Source: Polyangiales bacterium
Lineage (GTDB): Bacteria; Myxococcota_A; Polyangia; Polyangiales; Ga0077539
Length of the DNA: 64,000 nt
Direction: 5' to 3'
Assembly: GCA_044229975.1 (NCBI GenBank)
Contig: JBGARZ010000001.1
Location: forward strand, 672,001-736,000
The notes beneath the pieces are model-generated. The model saw nothing but the letters and a program-made list of their open reading frames with translations, did no database searches and was not told the origin of the DNA. Below, in pieces: positions 29,504-51,049 of this stretch. Both the position numbers and the translations under genes were made by a program. The first letter of the stretch is position 1, and each line of letters opens with the position of its first letter.

Positions 29504-31135
29504 TCACTGCCCCCTCGCGACCTCCCAGGTCAGCTTGTAGCGCGCGAGGTATTTCCGTAGGCGATCAGCGTCGTTGACCGAGGTCTTGCCGGTGCGCGAG
29601 ACCGCGAAGAGAGCGCGACCCGCGGCCGAGAGTGTCGGCGAGGCCCGACAGACGCGGATCACCTCCGCGAGCTGCGGGCGGTCGAAGCGGTCGAGCGACG
29701 CGGCGCCATCGTCCCCGAGCGCCGAGCGCAGGAGGTCGTCGTCGGCCGATGGTTCGGTGGGCGAACGACCGCCTGCGATGCGCCAGCGGGCGCGGAGGCG
29801 AGCGACCTCCTCGTCGACGCCATCGACGTCGATGCGGCCGCCGCGAGACAGCGTCGCGAGGCGCGTGACGGCGGCCGAGAAGTCGCGGAAGTTTCCGGTC
29901 CAGAGAGCGTCGGCAGAGGTGGCGAAGGCGACGAAGCGGGCGCGGGCCTCGCGGCTCATGGTGACGTTGACGCCCAACGCGCGGCCGCACTGGGCGAGCT
30001 CGAAGTCGAGGTTGGGGTCGATGTCCTCGGGACGATCACGCAGGCCGGGGAGCGCGAAGGTCCACAGCTCGATGCGCGCGAGCAGGTCTTCGCGGAAGCG
30101 GCCCTCGGCGACGCGGGCGACGAGGTCGCGGTGGGTTCCGGCGATGAGCTGGAAGTCGCTCTTCACCTCGCGGTCGCTGCCCATGGGGCGGAAGCTCTTC
30201 TCCTCGACCGCGCGCAGGAGCATCGCCTGCTCGTCGAGACCGAGCTCGGCGATCTCGTCGAGGAAGAGCACGCCGCCGTCGGCCTTGCGGAGGAGGCCCT
30301 CGCGCTCGGACGCCGCGCCGGTGAAGGCGCCCTTGGCGTGGCCGAAGAGCGTCGACATCGCGCCGTCGCCCCGCAGCGTCGCGCAGTTGACCTCGACAAA
30401 CTCCCCGGCGACCTGCCGCCTGGTCTTCTTGAGTGCGTAGATGCGGCCTGCGAGCTGGGACTTCCCGGCGCCCGTCGGGCCGGTGAGCAGCATCGGGGCG
30501 CGCGAGGCGACGGCCACGCGCTCGATGCGGTCGATGAGCGTGTTGAAGGCGGCGTTGCGGGTGTCGATGCCGGCCTTGAGGAGCCCGGTGCGGGCGCGGG
30601 CCTCGGCGGCGAAGCGCGACGCGAGGCGGTCGTAGCGGGAGAGGTCGAGGTCGATGGCGCGCCAGGTTCCGACGAGGCCGGCGTCGCGGGTGGCGCGGGT
30701 GGGGGGCGCGGTCTGGAGCAGGGTCGCCGGGAAGTGTCGCGACTCGGTGAGCAGGAAGAGAACGATCTGCGCGACGTGCGTGCCCGTCGTGATGTGAACG
30801 AGGTAATCCTCGCGCTCGGGGTCGAAGGGGTAGGCGCGCGCGAAGTCATGGAGGGCGGCGTAGACCTGTTCGAGGTCCCACGGGTCGGCGATGTCGAGGG
30901 GGACGAGGTTGACCGCCGTCTCGGGGGAGACGGAGCCGATGTCGCGGCGGATGGTCTTGGCGAGGTTGAGGTAGTGCGGCTGGTGCAGGAGCTCGAAGCG
31001 CGAGACCAGCAGGTCGGGGTGCTGACAGACGGCGACGGAGGGGCGCCAGCGCTCCCAGCGCTTGTCCTGGGCGCCCGAGTCGAGCATCGGGCCGATCAGA
31101 CCGAGGACCACGGTGGGCTTCTTCGTCTTCGCCAT
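29504..31135 (-). CDS. rtcR: RNA repair sigma54 activator RtcR (CARF-like + AAA+ + HTH)
   Basis: RWERWRPSV, DPWD, HITTGTHVAQI, GPTGAGKS, GAFTGA, NDADRLRKYL; divergent from rtcBA. Confidence 0.96.
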   Translation of the reverse strand: MAKTKKPTVVLGLIGPMLDSGAQDKRWERWRPSVAVCQHPDLLVSRFELLHQPHYLNLAKTIRRDIGSVSPETAVNLVPLDIADPWDLEQVYAALHDFARAYPFDPEREDYLVHITTGTHVAQIVLFLLTESRHFPATLLQTAPPTRATRDAGLVGTWRAIDLDLSRYDRLASRFAAEARARTGLLKAGIDTRNAAFNTLIDRIERVAVASRAPMLLTGPTGAGKSQLAGRIYALKKTRRQVAGEFVEVNCATLRGDGAMSTLFGHAKGAFTGAASEREGLLRKADGGVLFLDEIAELGLDEQAMLLRAVEEKSFRPMGSDREVKSDFQLIAGTHRDLVARVAEGRFREDLLARIELWTFALPGLRDRPEDIDPNLDFELAQCGRALGVNVTMSREARARFVAFATSADALWTGNFRDFSAAVTRLATLSRGGRIDVDGVDEEVARLRARWRIAGGRSPTEPSADDDLLRSALGDDGAASLDRFDRPQLAEVIRVCRASPTLSAAGRALFAVSRTGKTSVNDADRLRKYLARYKLTWEVARGQ

Positions 31136-31218
31136 TGGGATAGGGCGGCTTGATACCATGGGATCAGACCGGGACGCTCGCGCGGCTCGATGGGCGGGAA
31201 GCATAGAGATTCGAGAGG

Positions 31219-31233
31219 TGGCACGAGGGCTGC
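31219..31233 (+). promoter_or_regulatory. Sigma54 promoter of rtcBA (TGGCACG-N4-CTGC)
   Basis: Canonical -24/-12 spacing, followed by AGGAGG RBS and the rtcB ATG. Confidence 0.85.
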
Positions 31234-31263
31234 GATGGGGGTTGCCCAGGAGGCACACGAGCC

Positions 31264-32493
<1,230 letters not shown>

Positions 32494-32499
32494 AGGGCC

Positions 32500-33537
32500 A
32501 TGAACGACTGGATCACGGTGGACGGGTCGGAGGGTGAGGGCGGCGGGCAGATGCTGCGCTCGTCGCTCTCGCTCTCGCTCGTCACGGGCAAAGCCTTCCG
32601 CATGGTGCGGGTGCGCGCGGGTCGGCAGAAGCCGGGGCTGCTTCGGCAGCACCTGACCTGCCTGCGCGCGGCGGCAGAGGTGAGCGGCGCGACCATCGAA
32701 GGGGCCGAGCTCGGCTCGCAGTCGGTGAGCTTCGCGCCGGGCCCGGTGCGCGGCGGCGACTACGCGTTTCGCATCGGGTCGGCGGGCAGCACCATGCTGG
32801 TGATGCAGACGGTGTTGCCCGCGCTGCTGCGCGGGGTGGCGCCGTCGACGCTGCTCTTCGAGGGCGGGACGCACAACACCATGGCGCCGTCGTTCGACTT
32901 CATCGAGCGGGTGTTCGTCCCGGCGGTCAACCGCATGGGGCCGACGGTGACGTGCGCGCTGGCGCGGGCGGGTTTCTACCCGGCGGGGGGTGGGCGAGCG
33001 ACGGTGACGGTGACGCCGTCGGCGTCGCTGGCGCGCATCGAGCTGATGGAGCGCGGCGCGGTGGTGTCCCAGCGCGTGGTGGCGCGCGTCGCGGGCCTGG
33101 GCGACGGCATCGCGCGGCGCGAGGTGCTGGCGGCGGGCGAGGTGCTCGGCTGGGGCGAGGAGTGCCTGCGGGCGGAAGCGCTTCCGAGGGAGTGGGGGCC
33201 GGGCAACGTGGTGCTGGTGGAGGTGGTCTGCGAGCGCGGGACGGAGGTGTTCATGGCGTGCGGCGAGAAGGGTCGCAGCGCCGAGAGCGTGGGCGCCGCC
33301 GTGGCAAAGGAGGCGAAGGCGTGGCTCGACGCCGGGGTGCCCGTAGACGAACACCTCGCGGACCAGTTGTTGTTGCCGATGGCGCTGGCCGGCGGCGGGC
33401 GCTTCATGACGACGGAGCCGTCGCTGCACACGACGACCAACGCGAAGATCATCGAGCGCTTTCTGCCGGTGACGGTCACCATGGAGGCGCGCGGCGAGCG
33501 GGCGTGGGAGGTCCGCGTCGAGGGGCCGCGGGGGTGA
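32500..33537 (+). CDS. rtcA: RNA 3'-terminal phosphate cyclase
   Basis: GEGGGQMLRS, PGLLRQH, GGTHN, GFYPAGGG, HLADQL, SLHTTTN. Confidence 0.97.
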   Translation: MNDWITVDGSEGEGGGQMLRSSLSLSLVTGKAFRMVRVRAGRQKPGLLRQHLTCLRAAAEVSGATIEGAELGSQSVSFAPGPVRGGDYAFRIGSAGSTMLVMQTVLPALLRGVAPSTLLFEGGTHNTMAPSFDFIERVFVPAVNRMGPTVTCALARAGFYPAGGGRATVTVTPSASLARIELMERGAVVSQRVVARVAGLGDGIARREVLAAGEVLGWGEECLRAEALPREWGPGNVVLVEVVCERGTEVFMACGEKGRSAESVGAAVAKEAKAWLDAGVPVDEHLADQLLLPMALAGGGRFMTTEPSLHTTTNAKIIERFLPVTVTMEARGERAWEVRVEGPRG

Positions 33538-34936: not shown

Positions 34937-35824
34937 GTGCCGCTCCCTCCCCCTCGCCCGTCGCGCCTCAAGCTCCTCCCCGAAGCCGCCCTGGTCGCGA
35001 CCTTCCTCGGCATGGCCGCCTATGAGGCCGCCGAGGTGTTCTTCCTCGAAGCGCCCACCGGGTCGGCGGTGTCGCTCACCATCGTGCTGCACTCGTTGCA
35101 GGTGCTCGCCATCCTCGCGGGCGCCGCGGGGCTGCTGCGCGCGCTGCGACAGCGGGCCGCCCACGAAGAAGCGCTCGCCCGCATGGTGGAGAAGGTTCTC
35201 TTCGCGCAGGAACAGGAACGCCGCCGCGTCGCCTACGAGCTGCACGACGCCGTCTCGCCGCTCATCGTGAGCGCCAAGCAGCACGCCGAGACCTGCCGCG
35301 ACGCGTGGTCGGATGACGACACCCGCGCGCGGTCCGAGCTCACCCGCGGCATCGACCGGCTCCAACAGGCGATCGTCGAGACCCGGCGCATGCTCCGCGC
35401 GCTGCGCCCCTCGGACGTCGACGCCGACGGGCTCGCCGTCGCGGTGCGCCGCTGCCTCGACGAGTCCGCCGAAGAGTCCGGTTGGACTGTCGCCTTCGAG
35501 CACGACCTCACCGACGACCGGCTCCCTGCAGCCGTCGAGATGGCGGCGTTTCGCATCGCGCAGGAGGCCGTTCGCAACGCCGCGAGGCACGCCCGCGCCG
35601 AGCGCGTCGAGGTGCGGCTCCGACGCGACGGAGACGCCTTGCGAGTGCGGGTGCACGACGACGGCGTGGGCTTCGCGGCGGGCGACACCCCCTCGCGCGG
35701 ACTCGGACTGGTGAGCATGCGCGAGCGGGCGAGCCTCCTCGGCGGGCAGTGCGTGGTGGAGAGCGGGCGGGGCCGCGGGACGACGGTGGACGTCTCGCTG
35801 CCGTTGCGTGCGGAGCAAGCGTGA
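34937..35824 (+). CDS. Sensor histidine kinase (HisKA_3, NarX-like)
   Basis: Two TM helices, QEQERRRVAYELHD, QEAVRNAARHA, DDGVGF, GLGLVSMRERA. Confidence 0.93.
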   Translation: MPLPPPRPSRLKLLPEAALVATFLGMAAYEAAEVFFLEAPTGSAVSLTIVLHSLQVLAILAGAAGLLRALRQRAAHEEALARMVEKVLFAQEQERRRVAYELHDAVSPLIVSAKQHAETCRDAWSDDDTRARSELTRGIDRLQQAIVETRRMLRALRPSDVDADGLAVAVRRCLDESAEESGWTVAFEHDLTDDRLPAAVEMAAFRIAQEAVRNAARHARAERVEVRLRRDGDALRVRVHDDGVGFAAGDTPSRGLGLVSMRERASLLGGQCVVESGRGRGTTVDVSLPLRAEQA

Positions 35825-35886
35825 CCGCTTCACCCGGCTACGGACCGGGGTTGGTCGCGTCCCGCGCCTGCACCGCCGGGCAAGCG

Positions 35887-37811
35887 ATCGGCATAGGGGC
35901 GGCCCCTCCGTGAGGAGGAGCCGACCCCTGCCACACCACCGGACAAGCGGGTCCGCATCCGGCGGTTCGGACGGTTGAGGTCACCTCCGTAGCCTCCACA
36001 ACCCGAGGCTGTCGAACCAACTGGGTCGGAGCGTGAAGCCCAGGCGGAGCGCGCGGCGCCACCAGCCACCGGCCGAGGCCACCGACTTCCAGCTTGCTTC
36101 GTCCCCTTGTCCAAGGGCGCGCAGCGACTGGTAGATCGTGATGCCTCGCTTCCAGTGCTTCAGTTGCACCATCCGAAGGCGACGGCGAATCCACTCGTCC
36201 AGCCCCTCGAAGAGCTTCGTCTGCTGCGTGAGGCGGTAGTACGCCCACCACCCACGCAGGTACCGATTCAGCCTCTCGATCAGTTGCACCAGACTGCGAC
36301 CCGCCGTCCGGCTCGTGAGCTCCCGCACACGCGCCTTGAACGCCTCTTGCGACTTCGCCGACACCCCTCGCTTCACTTCTCCGCCGTGCGCGTAGAACTG
36401 AAAGCCCAGGAACTTCCGTCCCTTGACCGGCGCCACCGCGCTCTTGGACTCGTTGACCCGGAGGTGCAGCGACGCGAAGCGCTCCCGCAGGAATGCCATC
36501 ACTCGCTCGCCCGCCCGCTCCGACCTCACGTACACGTTGAGGTCGTCGGCGTAGCGCACGAACGCGTGACCGCGCTGCTCCAACTCCTTGTCCACTTCGT
36601 CCAGAAGCACGTTCGCCAGCAGTGGTGACAGCGGGCCGCCTTGCGGCGTTCCCTCCGTCCGCGCCGTCGCGATCCCGTCGGCCATCATCCCGGCCTCCAG
36701 GTAGCGACGGATGAGCCTCAGCAGGCGCTTGTCCTCGATGCGTTTGGCCAACCGGCCCATCAGCACGTCGTGGTTCACGCGGTCGAAGAACGCTTCGAGG
36801 TCCACGTCCACCACCACCCCGCGCCCCTCCTGGACGTAGCGCTGTGCGACGACAATCGCGTCGTGCGCGCTGCGCCCCGGGCGGAACCCGTAGCTGTGCT
36901 GTGAGAAGGTCGGATCGAATCGAGGCTGAAGCACCTGGAGGATCGCCTGTTGGAGGAGACGATCCAGGGCCGTCGGGATGCCGAGAGTCCTCGTGCCGCC
37001 CGACGCCTTGGGGATCTCGCACGATCTCACCGGCTGCGGTTGGTAGCGCCCCGCGAGGAGGTCCTCGCGCAGACGCGGCCAGTGCACACGCAGGTGGGCC
37101 GCGAGATCCTTCGTCTCCATCCCGTCCACTCCGGGGCTGCCCCGGTTGCTCTGCACCCGCTGGAGCGCCCGCAAGAGGTTGTCCCTTCCGAGGACCGCCT
37201 CCAGCAAGGCGCTGGTGCCCGAGTGCTCGTCTCCTTTCGTCGCCGTGGGGTCTTCCTCGCGGGGCTGCGCGTTGAGGGCTTCACCCTCGTCGCGCCTCCC
37301 TCGCCCCGGTGGTGTCCCGGGCATCTGAGGCGGTTCCCTTTTGAGACTCATGGTCGATGCACCCTCCCTTCCGTTTGGTCCTTTGCGCGGCCGTCGGCCC
37401 TTCGTCGTGGCGTTCCCCGTCGTGTCTCCGACGTCGTTGGCGACGTCGGCGCGGGAGCCCAGGTTTTCGGACGCGCTACTACGACCTCTGCTGACTTCCT
37501 GCGCCGCACGTTGGTGTGTGTCGCCCTTTCAGGCGTGAAGCAGGATCTCCCCGGGTAAGAAACGCTGGCTTTCACGGCGCAACCGCCCGATCTACCGCAC
37601 GGTCTCTTGGTCATTGGAGCTTCGCGGCTCCTTGCCCGCTCGCCCCAGACCGCACGGCCTCACATCGGCTTTCTGTCCGTCGGCTCGCCGTTTCGCGTCG
37701 GGCTTCCTTCAGACAGTCCGTTGCCTCGCTGCCCTTGCCTCTCGCGTGGATCGTCATGACCTACTTTCCCGGGGACTTGCACCCCGAAGCCAACGCCCAT
37801 GCCGGGCGCAC
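35887..37811 (-). mobile_element. Complete class IIC group II intron (1925 nt)
   Basis: 5' end GTGCGCCCGGCATGGG at 37811; domain V GAACCGCCGGATGCGGACCCGCTTGTCCGGTGGTGT with CGC triad (~35933-35968); domain VI ending CCTATGCCGAT at 35887; RT ORF inside. Confidence 0.93.
35981..37351 (-). CDS. ltrA: Group II intron reverse transcriptase/maturase (no endonuclease domain)
   Basis: GSPGVDG, RTLGIPT..DR, SYGFRPGRS, DLEAFFD, GTPQGGPLSPLLAN, YADD, FLGF, domain X LRGWWAYY. Confidence 0.97.
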   Translation of the reverse strand: MSLKREPPQMPGTPPGRGRRDEGEALNAQPREEDPTATKGDEHSGTSALLEAVLGRDNLLRALQRVQSNRGSPGVDGMETKDLAAHLRVHWPRLREDLLAGRYQPQPVRSCEIPKASGGTRTLGIPTALDRLLQQAILQVLQPRFDPTFSQHSYGFRPGRSAHDAIVVAQRYVQEGRGVVVDVDLEAFFDRVNHDVLMGRLAKRIEDKRLLRLIRRYLEAGMMADGIATARTEGTPQGGPLSPLLANVLLDEVDKELEQRGHAFVRYADDLNVYVRSERAGERVMAFLRERFASLHLRVNESKSAVAPVKGRKFLGFQFYAHGGEVKRGVSAKSQEAFKARVRELTSRTAGRSLVQLIERLNRYLRGWWAYYRLTQQTKLFEGLDEWIRRRLRMVQLKHWKRGITIYQSLRALGQGDEASWKSVASAGGWWRRALRLGFTLRPSWFDSLGLWRLRR

Positions 37812-38017
37812 AAAGCAGGCGCCCCTCCGGGGCTTCCGGAAGCCATCGACCGCACGATGGGTTCTTGTTGAGTGCCTGGAATGCACTTCGTGACGCTCGT
37901 GGCGACCTTCCGAAAGCCCCGCTGGGGCGCTTGCTTTCGCTTGCCCGGGGTGCAGGCGCGAGGCGCGACCAACCCCGGTCCGAAGGCAGGCCGAGCGAAC
38001 CGGAGAGACGAGCCGTG

Positions 38018-38614
38018 ATGCGCGTGTTGCTGGTCGACGACCACCCCGTGGTCCGCGAGGGCCTTCGCAGCATGCTGGTGAGCGACGGCGTCGAGGTCGT
38101 CGCCGAGGCCGCGACCGGCGCCGACGCGGTGTCCCTCGCGCGGCAGCACGCGCCCGACGTGGTGCTGCTCGACATGCAGCTCCCGGACATGGAGGGCGTC
38201 GCGGCGCTGCGGCAGATGAAGCAGACCGGTGTGCGCAGCGCGGTGCTCGTCCTGAGCATGCACGACGACCCCGCGATGGTGCGCCGCGCGATGGACGCGG
38301 GCGCCTCTGGCTACCTCCTGAAAGGAACCAACCGCGGCGATCTCCTCGCCGCGATGCGGGCCGTGTGCGAGGGAGCGACGGTCATCGACCCGACCCTCCA
38401 GGCGGCGCTCGCACCGACCGACGACGCGCTCACCGCGGTCGAGCGCGAGGTGCTCCGACTGCTCGCCGAGGGGCTCACCAACCGCGAGATCGCCGAGCAG
38501 CGGAAGTGGAGCATCGCGACGGCGAAGAAGTACGTGCAGCGCGTGCTGGAGAAGCTCGGCGCCACCGACCGCACGCAGGCCGTGGCCGTCGCGATACGAC
38601 GCGGGCTCGCGTAG
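38018..38614 (+). CDS. NarL/LuxR family response regulator
   Basis: VDDHPVVREGL receiver, LTAVEREVL..GLTNREIA..KLGATDRTQA HTH. Confidence 0.95.
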   Translation: MRVLLVDDHPVVREGLRSMLVSDGVEVVAEAATGADAVSLARQHAPDVVLLDMQLPDMEGVAALRQMKQTGVRSAVLVLSMHDDPAMVRRAMDAGASGYLLKGTNRGDLLAAMRAVCEGATVIDPTLQAALAPTDDALTAVEREVLRLLAEGLTNREIAEQRKWSIATAKKYVQRVLEKLGATDRTQAVAVAIRRGLA

Positions 38615-46511: not shown

Positions 46512-46549
46512 TCCATTCGTGGTCCCCGACCCGTGGGCCGCTGACAGAG

Positions 46550-46738
46550 CGGGGTTGGTCGCGTCCCGCGCCTGCACCACCGAGCAAGCGAACGCAGGCG
46601 CCCCTTCGGGGCTTTCGGAAGGGCGCTTCGGTCATCCAGCAGCCGGCGCGTTGTGTTGGCCGATCGCTTCGGGAAGCCCCGGAGGGGCGCCTGCGTTCGC
46701 TAGCCCGGTGGTGCAGGCGCGGGACGCGACCAACCCCG
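46550..46738. repeat. Intact REP/REPIN-like palindromic element (family A)
   Basis: 72-nt arms 46550-46621 and 46667-46738 with a few mismatches, 45-nt spacer; same arm sequence as the intron-invaded copy. Confidence 0.92.
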
Positions 46739-46819
46739 GTCCCTCAGCGGGTCATGCCCGTTGACACCGATGCTCAACCATTGGCGACGGAGCGGGTCGT
46801 TGCCCATGATGCGCGGACC

Positions 46820-48880: not shown

Positions 48881-50806
48881 TCACACGGTGCTGTCAAGCG
48901 CGCCGTCGCCCACGCGCACGGCGCCGGTGGCCCGGAGCACCGGGCTCCACGTCGCCGCGGACGTGAGCGCGAGCTGGTGCGACGCGCGGGTCATCGCCAC
49001 GTAGAGAGCGCGGCGCGCCTCGTCGCCGTCGGGGTACGCGCCCACGTCGCAGTCGGCGACCACCACGTGATCGAACTCCAGGCCCTTCACCTCCTGCACG
49101 CAGGTCACCTCGACGCCCGCCACGAAGCGGAAGTCCCCGCCGCGCACCAGGCGCACGAGGTCGTCGCCGCGCTTCAACAGCCCCGCCGTGCGCGCTGCCG
49201 CTTCGGGTGTGCGGCACACCACCGCGACGGACGCCTCCGGGTCGGACGCCCGCAACGCCCGCAGCGCATCGACCAACGCCGCCACCAGATGAAACGTCGT
49301 CGGCGCGCGCCACGTCGCGACGGCCTCGTCGAGCGGCGACTCGATGGGCGCCTCTCGCAGCACCGCCCGCGCGAGGGTCGTCACCGACGGCGGGCAGCGG
49401 TAGCTCACCGCGAGGCGCACCAGCTCGTGGTCGTCGGCGCCGAGCTCGCGCATGGCCTCGCCCCAACCCGGGAAGTACGCCGTCGGATCAACCTGCTGGC
49501 CCTCGTCACCTGCGACGATGAGGGTTCCGCCGGGGCGCACCGCGCGTCCGATGAGGGACAGCTCCAGCGGCGCGAACTCCTGCGCCTCGTCGAGCACCAC
49601 GCAGTCATACGCACCCGGCGACGGAGCGGGTGAGCCAGGCGTCGCGCGCAGGGCCGCGAGGGCGAAGAGCACGGCGTAGTCCTCGGGGTCGATGGCCCCG
49701 GCGTCCTCGAAGGGAGTCCCGGCGTCGAGGCGCAGACCATCGACGGCGGCGAGGCGGTCGGCGTCGACGTGGCGGTGGGACTCCTCGGTGGTGGCCGTGA
49801 ACTGCACGTTGGTGTGCTCCAGCACGCGCGTGACGACGTGCGGCCCGACGACGCCGCCCGAGGCTGCGGCGACGCGATCCATCAAGAGGCGCTCGCCGAA
49901 GAGATGCTGGAGGTCTTCGCGGTTGGCGGTCGCACCTGGTGGGCGCCCCGCACGCGTGGCCACGTCGGCGAGCGCGACGCGGAGCGCGGGGTGTCGCTTG
50001 AGGCGGTTGACGGCCGCCGCGTATCCGCTGCCCTCGCGCCGCGGAATGCCGGGAAACGCCTTGCGCGCCTGCACGGCGGCCCAGCGTTCGTAGCTCCGCA
50101 CCTCGACGTCCTCGGCGCCGAGGCGGGCGAGCAAGGTCTCGGACAGGCGCCGCAAGCCTTCGACGGGGACGAGCACCAGCGCGCGGAAGGGACGCCCGGA
50201 TTCGAGCGCACGACGACGGAGCGCGACGAGGCGATGGAGCGCGACGGTGGTCTTGCCGCAGCCGGCCTCACCGAGCGCGAGGAGCGGGCGACGGCGCGGG
50301 AGGTCGACCGCGCGGCGCTGCTCGGCGTCGAGGGCCTCGATGGTGAGGGGCGAGGCGGCGCGGGAGGTTCCGCGAGGGCGCGGACGCAGGAGCGTGAGGG
50401 CGGGGTGCGCGGTGCGACGCCACGGTCCGCCGTCGCGGCGGGTGAAGACGGCGTCGGGCGTGGCGACCTCGACGAGCGAGCCCCCGGCGAAGTGGAGGAG
50501 GGCGCGGGCGCGGAGGGTTCCGTCGAGGGTGCGGCCGTCGACGGTGAGCTCGTAGTCGTCGCCGACGGACGTCGAGAAGAACATCGACGCCAGGGGCGCG
50601 GTCTGCCAGTGCAGCACGGAGACGGGGCCGTGGATGTCGGTGCGCCAGCCGAGGAGGTGCTCGCGGGTTCGGCCCGCGGTCTCGACCTCCATCCAGCCGA
50701 AGCATGGTGTTGCCTCACCCGGTGAAGTCAGCGCCGCCTGGGCGGTGATGGCTTCGAGGTGGCGGATGAGGTGTTGTTCGCGGTCGCTGAGCGCGTCGTC
50801 CATCAC
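48881..50806 (-). CDS. SF1 UvrD-fold ATPase, HelD-like
   Basis: HWQTAPLA (HelD DWRAP-like), GEAGCGKTTVALHR, DEAQE, GDEGQ, SYR, KGLEFD, LYVAMTRA. Confidence 0.8.
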   Translation of the reverse strand: MMDDALSDREQHLIRHLEAITAQAALTSPGEATPCFGWMEVETAGRTREHLLGWRTDIHGPVSVLHWQTAPLASMFFSTSVGDDYELTVDGRTLDGTLRARALLHFAGGSLVEVATPDAVFTRRDGGPWRRTAHPALTLLRPRPRGTSRAASPLTIEALDAEQRRAVDLPRRRPLLALGEAGCGKTTVALHRLVALRRRALESGRPFRALVLVPVEGLRRLSETLLARLGAEDVEVRSYERWAAVQARKAFPGIPRREGSGYAAAVNRLKRHPALRVALADVATRAGRPPGATANREDLQHLFGERLLMDRVAAASGGVVGPHVVTRVLEHTNVQFTATTEESHRHVDADRLAAVDGLRLDAGTPFEDAGAIDPEDYAVLFALAALRATPGSPAPSPGAYDCVVLDEAQEFAPLELSLIGRAVRPGGTLIVAGDEGQQVDPTAYFPGWGEAMRELGADDHELVRLAVSYRCPPSVTTLARAVLREAPIESPLDEAVATWRAPTTFHLVAALVDALRALRASDPEASVAVVCRTPEAAARTAGLLKRGDDLVRLVRGGDFRFVAGVEVTCVQEVKGLEFDHVVVADCDVGAYPDGDEARRALYVAMTRASHQLALTSAATWSPVLRATGAVRVGDGALDSTV

Positions 50807-50828
50807 CCTCTATGGGAGGACGCGCTAG

Positions 50829-50916
50829 CGGAGAGAGTGGGATTCGAACCCACGGTACCCTTTTGGAGTACACCGCATTTCCAGTGCGGCGCCTTCGACC
50901 ACTCGGCCATCTCTCC
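50829..50916 (-). tRNA. tRNA-Ser (GGA)
   Basis: GGAGAGA acceptor, anticodon arm CCGCA-CTGGAAA-TGCGG, long variable arm, GGTTCGAATCC; CCA not encoded. Confidence 0.96.
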
Positions 50917-50964
50917 CAACGGCGTCGGTCGCGGGGACCGACGCCGGGAACTTCTATGATTGAG

Positions 50965-51049
50965 CGGAGAGCAAGGGATTCGAACCCTTGGTACCTTTCG
51001 GCACACCTGATTTCGAATCAGGCACCATCGACCACTCGGACAGCTCTCC
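50965..51049 (-). tRNA. tRNA-Ser (CGA)
   Basis: GGAGAGC acceptor, anticodon arm CCTGA-TTCGAAA-TCAGG, long variable arm, GGTTCGAATCC; CCA not encoded. Confidence 0.96.

Follow-up and report, generated by a model that had tools for sequence, protein, structure and literature searches.

In reviews, class C (IIC) group II introns are assigned two kinds of target, namely terminators and attC sites (PMC4424553, PMC8643678, PMC12584367). The terminator-homing introns B.h.I1, GsI-IIC and E.r. IIC have in common a family of reverse transcriptases (RTs) without endonuclease, a 4-bp pairing of exon-binding site 1 with intron-binding site 1 (EBS1-IBS1), an EBS3-IBS3 pair, a pair at exon position -6 and a stem-loop that precedes the junction by about 8-9 nt (PMC10190682). 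In a IIC particle studied by cryo-electron microscopy, the 4-bp EBS1-IBS1 and the EBS3-IBS3 pairings are accompanied by a discontinuous fifth pair at -6; the IIC target stem measures about 12 bp and is separated from the junction by 8 nt (PMC10190682). The IIC-attC introns (S.ma.I2 type) are a class C sub-lineage that uses a fixed base on the folded single strand of an inverted repeat of another mobile system (PMC4424553). Repetitive extragenic palindromes (REPs) and their hairpin-forming doublets (REPINs) accompany REP-associated tyrosine transposases (RAYTs). In the group 3 REPMb type, extragenic inverted doublets flank a single-copy, syntenic Y1 gene, and the unit consists of a tetranucleotide (GTAG), two bases and a 5-bp palindrome (PMC8266576). 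REPs also serve as targets: the insertion sequences (ISs) IS1397, ISKpn1, IS621, ISPpu9/10, ISPsy8 and ISRm22 have all their copies in extragenic palindromes (PMC1525189). The locus described here resembles each of these systems in part. It is a class C intron in a stretch of 64,000 nucleotides, called the window below (Polyangiales bacterium, GCA_044229975.1, contig JBGARZ010000001.1, positions 672,001 to 736,000), and all eight copies in the genome lie at one base of a REP/REPIN-type repeat. Reverse-splicing into a repeat arm in its single-stranded state is the likely mode of spread, for which the intron would read the shape of a stem-loop and pair with the neighbouring bases.

The genome carrying the window is named G000 and related genomes have other G numbers; L numbers denote loci and C numbers contigs, of G000 unless another genome is given. 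The assembly of G000 comprises 10.0 Mb in 39 contigs, with 71% GC and a completeness of 93%. The intron and its parts are located as follows.

35887-37811, minus strand: group II intron of class C, 1925 nt, present in the genome in eight copies, ends read directly
35981-37351, minus strand: intron-encoded reverse transcriptase/maturase, 456 aa, YADD motif intact (TIGR04416, 418 bits, cut-off 300)
37560-37730, minus strand: segment of ribozyme domain I (Rfam group-II-D1D4-3, RF02001; 105.7 bits, gathering threshold 32)
35887-35967, minus strand: domains V and VI, a short D5 with CGC triad and a D6 with bulged A (z -5.4)

By its sequence, this element qualifies as an intact group II intron of class C. 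It starts with GTGCG, conforming to GUGYG, and ends with CCGAT, conforming to AY; D5, the bulged A of D6, the 4-nt EBS1-IBS1 and the EBS3-IBS3 pairings are all present. A short D5 with a CGC triad is a mark of IIC introns, and the Rfam alignment of D5 has four deleted positions as well as this triad. A Pfam search of the RT gave RVT_1 and GIIM alone, that is, no endonuclease domain was detected. Its best solved relative is the GsI-IIC RT (E 2.6e-128), a further solved match is the E.r.-type maturase (E 3.7e-93), and the matches to class C proteins far exceed those to IIA and IIB proteins. The IIC assignment made in a first-pass annotation, which had been derived from the DNA letters, is therefore borne out by a GsI-IIC-like RT, the Rfam match of domain I, the short CGC-type D5 and the bulged-A D6. 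The closest homologs of the intron come from Myxococcota records. As a side observation, the D5 bulge (35940-35967, minus strand) reads UU despite the recent spread considered below, where group II introns usually have AY; the UU variant also occurs in G005, G006 and L033.

The insertion site is composed of the following segments; the last line gives a second, empty element of the same family.

35841-35886, minus strand: exon 2, the outer portion of the interrupted repeat arm, whose first base C is IBS3
37812-37815, minus strand: IBS1 (CTTT), the final four bases of exon 1, identical in 8/8 copies
37821-37833, minus strand: GNA-looped hairpin of 5 bp that precedes the junction by 9 nt, conserved across copies
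37844-37906, no strand: variable spacer of the element, distinct in each copy
37907-37982, minus strand: uninterrupted partner arm of the intron-bearing element
46548-46742, no strand: empty element of the family targeted by the intron, with CGTT replacing CTTT in both arms

Excision of 35887-37811 joins GGGCAAGCG directly to AAAGCAGGCGCCCC, with 0 bases gained or lost. The arm rebuilt in this way matches the reverse complement of about 37907-37985 with 90% identity over 80 nt, and the whole element, once rebuilt, aligns with its intact counterpart (about 46550-46740) with 79% identity over 216 nt. The hairpin reads GCCCC-GGA-GGGGC on the minus strand (37833-37821). Consequently, the seamless insertion, the two arm matches and the hairpin 9 nt ahead of the junction, all of which the first-pass annotation had claimed, were confirmed. 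Within the window, the hairpin motif occurs four times (0.06 expected), and all occurrences are inside the two elements. The CGTT sites of the empty element (46694-46697, plus strand; 46594-46591, minus strand) both mismatch EBS1.

Tabulation of the junctions of every copy in G000 placed 8/8 introns in the palindromic repeat and in one register. Five copies are whole (99.95-100% identical), and three are broken by contig ends; the latter were assembled from three 5' and three 3' pieces, for which the pairing was inferred from private variants of the arms. All eight 5' junctions consist of the hairpin, 9 nt and the terminal CTTT. At the 3' junction, the repeat arm continues in 7/8 copies. The eighth copy, on C34, has an unchanged exon 1 and an unrelated exon 2, which is a palindrome of 478 nt from another repeat family; CTTT recurs beyond this palindrome, before the arm resumes. 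On the simplest reading, the palindrome module was already in place when the intron arrived, whose needs did not go beyond exon 1 and a +1 base of C. The spacers of the elements differ at 8/8 loci, and variants beside both junctions track the partner arm of the same element, while the introns themselves are identical. This pattern argues that the elements diverged first and then received the intron in independent events, and the near-identity of the copies implies a recent spread. When sequencing reads of four DNA runs were assembled as contigs, pieces ran past the intron ends into the repeat arms in three of the four. The single joint that skips the intron resembles a different empty arm and not an empty allele of the window locus, and no count was drawn from these runs. 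Among the listed runs that contain the sequence, none is of RNA. With respect to the C34 palindrome (G000:C34:360137-360614, L001), we noted that its inner part belongs to the repeat family flanking a Y1 gene at C23:67598; the repeats of G000 are nested, modular palindromes.

A motif scan of the genome (10 Mb) found 23 hairpin arms in 12 elements, eight of which are filled. None of the filled elements is occupied in both arms, which is not significant (P 0.11-0.13). Among the four empty ones are the window element with its two mismatched arms and a lone arm on C11 with a C at -6; of the remaining 10 elements, eight are filled. About nine short copies consisting of the outer unit only carry no intron. 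In order to assess the enrichment, we counted every CTTT/C that is preceded, at a distance of 9 nt, by a 5-bp hairpin of whatever sequence: repeat arms account for 19 of 75, and the probability that all eight introns fall there is 4.5e-6. A restriction to intergenic sites, based on simple gene calls of our own, was meant to allow for the purging of insertions that disrupt genes. With the strictest rule, 19 of 32 intergenic sites are repeat arms (P 0.007), with wobble pairs allowed 21 of 85 (P 4e-6), and with a spacing of 8-14 nt 22 of 375 (P 4e-11). Since these rules were drawn from the same data, the strict-rule value of 0.007 is the conservative figure. The first-pass proposal of a multi-copy intergenic repeat as landing pad is supported by these numbers, as 8/8 copies are in the repeat and the enrichment persists among intergenic sites.

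The target repeat occurs in 9/30 relatives of the family. In G001 and G007, inverted copies of the target arms flank a single-copy, syntenic gene for a Y1 transposase of 143 aa; the two proteins are 92% identical and match PF01797 (E 1.9e-20). That the same arms flank a single-copy Y1 gene in two congeners identifies the repeat as REP/REPIN-type. Its layout agrees: it is extragenic, palindromic and multi-copy, and forms inverted doublets with a variable spacer. The unit layout is that of group 3 REPMb, with the tetranucleotide GCAG, not GTAG, in both arm units, followed by two bases and a 5-bp palindrome. The Y1 protein reached 21.9 bits with the classical RAYT model NF047646 (cut-off 80) and 64.6 bits with the IS200 model (cut-off 55). 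The RAYT-like IS200 group behaves likewise, being recognised by the IS200 model but not by the classical one for RAYTs (PMC5581495). A relative of the Y1 protein (53% identical) is present in G002 in three equal-scoring copies and is in this respect IS-like. We conclude that the repeat appears to behave as a REPIN, the Y1 protein being a candidate RAYT in the strict sense. A search of G000 did not reveal the cognate Y1 gene; the best match has 50% identity, and the assembly is 93% complete. Note that three other Y1 genes of G000 (L002, L003, L004) are each flanked by their own inverted multi-copy repeat; these families are about 27 to 100 BLAST pieces deep, and the intron is in none of them. 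At L005 (G000:C26:69582-72776), a weak Y1 match lies between two long stretches that each match the genome about 170-200 times.

The elements by which the intron would recognise its target were predicted from an alignment of homologs.

37629-37633, minus strand: EBS1 AAGG (37633-37630), followed in the loop by A (37629), the predicted partner of -6 (alignment, covariation)
37592, minus strand: G, the predicted EBS3, which would pair with the C that opens exon 2 (top mutual information with +1 among 123 introns)

EBS1 AAGG pairs with the target CTTT, with one G-T wobble. Across 77 homolog junctions, 255 of 308 EBS1-IBS1 positions are Watson-Crick pairs, compared with a mean of 124 and a maximum of 155 after shuffling; the rows include kin. 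The base after EBS1 covaries with -6 (33/67 vs 22.0) and not with -5 or -7, in agreement with the cryo-electron microscopy structure (PMC10190682). In G000, this base is A, and -6 is T in 7/8 filled sites. As regards EBS2-IBS2, a pairing that class C introns do without, exon positions -6 to -8 vary among the copies and domain I is short. Sequence past +1 appears dispensable. An 8-bp stem straddling the junction was dropped as a signal because the C34 copy is devoid of the 3' half of this stem. The requirement for a GNA loop is weakened by the target of G007, which has a non-GNA loop of 5 nt.

The related introns were compared in a tree of 105 RTs, which contained close homologs and no reference classes. 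The RT of the window belongs to a clade of six members with 99% support, and five of these (G000, G006, G025, G012, L029) are in palindromic repeats. In G006, three empty copies show both exons contiguous; the three introns of G025 occupy a repeat that is found on either side of its own Y1 gene; the target repeat of G012 has 84 matches; and L029 is in an inverted repeat with the same layout as in G000, which is single-copy in its own assembly. The EBS1 sequences of G000, G006, G025, G012 and L029 are AAGG, TCAT, GCTA, CAAC and CTAT, and each fits its own target. Three further genomes were added from intron ends without usable RT. The end in G007 is in the same repeat family and the same 9-nt register as in G000; in G009, which has 40 repeat matches, the hairpin is again the same and is followed after 8-9 nt by the junction in three cases, though the bases of the spacer differ; and the end in G015 is in a repeat with six matches. 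The 5' end in G007 (L112/L168, at the end of C405) is devoid of about 60 nt between two short direct repeats and is probably a decayed copy. In sum, palindromic repeats were found in 7/8 other genomes with a classifiable junction, and EBS1 has changed to match wherever it is readable; this tally of non-independent kin leaves out G013 (3' junction alone), G027 (cut by a contig end) and the distant second intron of G006 (L155). An automatic test for inverted repeats flagged 4/153 junction rows and was not used as a count, as it missed L028 and L029 and many exons were unreadable.

The eighth of these genomes is G005. Its intron uses an unrelated 10-bp stem with one G-A mismatch, located 8 nt from the junction, and has the EBS1 GGAT; it lies at the start of an IS66 tnpB gene, which makes repeat targeting a preference and not a fixed trait. 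The locus (L162, G005:C176:1-6500) is itself triply nested: an ISL3 element interrupts the 5' part of the intron, which in turn interrupts the beginning of tnpB in an IS66 that is truncated. Homologs with 56-63% identity are, by eye, mostly behind terminator hairpins. The check named in the first-pass annotation, whether close homologues are at ordinary terminators, comes out in favour of the repeat for most close relatives, which are in palindromic repeats; the nearest one is in IS66, and the distant ones are mostly at terminators.

The 8/8 copies at the repeat, together with most close relatives in similar repeats, make it likely that the lineage uses repeats instead of gene terminators. That the intron is concentrated in a family of REPIN type is well supported by sequence comparison, which also provides evidence that its sub-lineage prefers repeats and retargets via EBS1. 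A broader proposal is tentative and falls slightly short of an even case: the Myxococcota class C sub-lineage may have made REPINs a third target class, for which it would read either the whole REPIN fold-back (arms 100-250 nt apart) or an exceptionally short GNA-capped stem, land at the module boundary, and hop between unrelated REPIN families by changing the four bases of EBS1, nearly saturating each family that is matched.

Several other targets were observed among the homologs. Class C introns at L084 and L202, in another part of the tree, are located 8 nt behind classical GTAG-tagged REP hairpins, which is likely an independent move to REPs. L036 and L224, which are also placed elsewhere in the tree, are homologs in attC-like sites. 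In tandem introns (L033, L216, L257, L253, L256), domain VI serves the next intron as hairpin, or another intron begins at +1. The loci L041-L073 represent a highly multi-copy relative in records labelled Longimicrobiales, with EBS1 CACT and varied 3' exons, whose 5' end was not located by the pattern used.

We propose the following mechanism. The intron would reverse-splice into a single-stranded repeat arm, whose DNA stem-loop would be read by shape and whose adjacent bases would be read by pairing (EBS1 with CTTT, EBS3 with C). The stem would end about 9 nt before the junction, and the GCCCC/GGGGC unit would mark this end, either alone or as the foot of a two-arm stem. By analogy with class C biology, the attack would take place on single-stranded DNA at the replication fork, with priming by a nascent strand; this step is inferred from an RT without endonuclease. 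As suggested by comparison, a small, Myxococcota-centred sub-lineage would land in the repeat family of its own host by adjusting EBS1, an unrelated stem-loop such as that in IS66 still being usable.

Several observations weigh against this reading. The 5-bp hairpin of the window is weak by energy, is not the minimum-energy fold and is no more stable than shuffled sequences (z -0.70, +0.53); it is distinguished by its conservation among copies, not by energy. Its stem is less than half of the IIC consensus of about 12 bp (PMC10190682). Full pairing of the two arms buries IBS1, with a modelled opening cost of 11-21 kcal/mol. The distance between hairpin and junction is about 9 nt in G000, G007 and G009, but 10-14 nt or more in G006, G012, G015, L029 and G025. 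The nearest homolog (G005, 84% aa identity) is not in a repeat. The target family in G000 is small, with eight of 12 elements filled, and two that offer an arm with a perfect match remain empty. Class C introns are reported to prefer the lagging template (PMC8919778), and the corresponding prediction is unconfirmed: GC skew is weak in G000, being positive on the intron strand for 7/11 junction contigs at ±100 kb and 9/11 at ±200 kb, and the third-codon skew is positive for 6/11. Finally, an occasional association of introns with REPs is already contained in a published table (PMC1525189).

A serious rival, which we regard as somewhat doubtful, concerns the structure that is read. The inner arms, which are 100-250 nt apart, can form a long stem with the same foot as the local hairpin; according to this alternative, the long stem is the signal, not the 5-bp hairpin, and the attack takes place at the foot of the REPIN fold-back at times when its outer part is frayed or otherwise paired. 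This would explain why generic 5-bp hairpins go unused. The partner arm is present at 8/8 filled sites, and the lone arm on C11, a single case, is empty. Between the end of the two-arm stem and the junction there are 8 nt in L029 and 9 nt in a copy of G025, which is the canonical spacing (PMC10190682), and the arms in G009 mismatch exactly in the 4-5 bases ahead of the junction. In G000, however, the arms are complementary across IBS1, which would be hidden. Moreover, G005, G006 and one G025 copy show the local hairpin alone, and another G025 copy is paired nearly to the junction.

A rather unlikely alternative is an ordinary, unspecialised IIC intron, for which the arms are merely the best combinations of stem-loop and CTTT in a terminator-poor genome of 71% GC, and perhaps weak terminators. 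The closest homolog does use a non-repeat stem with canonical spacing, the partner arm was scored as terminator-like by a scan, and long-stem sites with a T-tail are few (31 intergenic positions in G000). None of these 31 positions is occupied (0/31), and thus 0/8 copies are at such sites; in addition, the 13 other intergenic sites that satisfy the strictest rule are empty. The orientation of the copies was considered with the flanking genes of the window copy.

34937-35824, plus strand: histidine kinase gene, uninterrupted
38018-38614, plus strand: LuxR-type response regulator gene; the intron is antisense between the kinase and the regulator gene

According to our gene calls and the inferred contig links, 6/8 copies are co-oriented with the upstream gene, as for a terminator, and 2/8 are antisense. 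Four of the co-oriented copies (4/8) have convergent genes on their two sides, so that an insertion into either arm would be co-oriented; tandem gene pairs are split into two sense and two antisense copies, the window copy being one of the latter. The sense copies could be transcribed by read-through and serve as donors. The seven other genomes with repeat targets, whose EBS1 differs where readable, also speak against an unspecialised intron.

An involvement of the Y1 transposase is improbable. In this case, the intron would exploit a nick or a single-stranded intermediate at the boundary of a repeat module, and the C34 copy, where the second palindromic module abuts the CTTT/C junction and has CTTT on both sides, does suggest a joining point of modules. 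The cognate gene is missing from the assembly, however, while the intron expands, the IS66 insertion needs no help by the transposase, and the stem-loop recognition of class C introns already accounts for the site. Least probable, and largely refuted, is a single insertion with subsequent spread by gene conversion or by movement of repeat and intron as one unit: the arms do supply 25-50 nt of homology per side and Y1 transposases presumably mobilise such repeats (PMC5581495), but the spacers differ at all loci, the junction variants follow the partner arms without co-conversion, the C34 copy has no downstream homology at all, no cognate Y1 gene was found in the 93% complete assembly (best match 50%), and the RT is intact.

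Two further features of the window were noted. At 29504-33537, rtcR is divergent from rtcB-rtcA in an ordinary RNA repair locus, 2.3 kb from the intron, with no link seen; at 48881-51049, a gene for a UvrD-like helicase is followed by two tRNA genes.

Compared with the described systems, the reading of a repeat-directed class C intron, which we prefer, differs in the following respects. Unlike that of terminator-homing IIC introns, the target in G000 is one repeat family, has no U-tract, provides a local stem of 5 bp instead of about 12 bp, and is used irrespective of the direction of transcription in tandem gene pairs; neither the location (0/8 at long-stem T-tail sites) nor the orientation (2/8 antisense to the upstream gene) corresponds to the terminator-homing subtype. 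Unlike that of IIC-attC introns, the target is not attC and lies among ordinary chromosomal genes, and EBS1 varies by host; by inspection, the elements of about 190-320 nt are dispersed and lack a cassette layout (an integrase search was not made). The REP-targeting ISs share the strategy of the intron, but use DNA transposases and not a retro-ribozyme (PMC1525189). For a group II intron of Pseudomonas putida, 2/9 copies (22%) were tabulated at REPs and not treated as targeting (PMC1525189), compared with 8/8 in G000. Beyond this table row, no printed account of REP-specialised group II introns was found in a search that most subscription papers and supplements were outside of. The first-pass remark that this target class is not well described therefore holds for specialised introns and has to be tempered by the Pseudomonas copies. 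The chemistry is the known stem-loop rule of IIC introns, applied to a little-described class of target, and the preference is non-exclusive.

In a lineage of introns dwelling in REPINs, a mobile element acts as a parasite of non-autonomous repeats that belong to a different one. Its clade offers a natural series on the stem needs of IIC introns, ranging from a 5-bp hairpin at 9 nt and 9-10-bp hairpins at 8-14 nt to long two-arm stems, with five EBS1 sequences, and G000 contains built-in controls: an empty element mismatched to EBS1, a lone arm and a copy with a foreign exon 2. From the insertions it also follows that, inside cells, the arms of REPINs must adopt a folded, single-stranded state with sufficient frequency to be attacked, which bears on the movement of REPINs.

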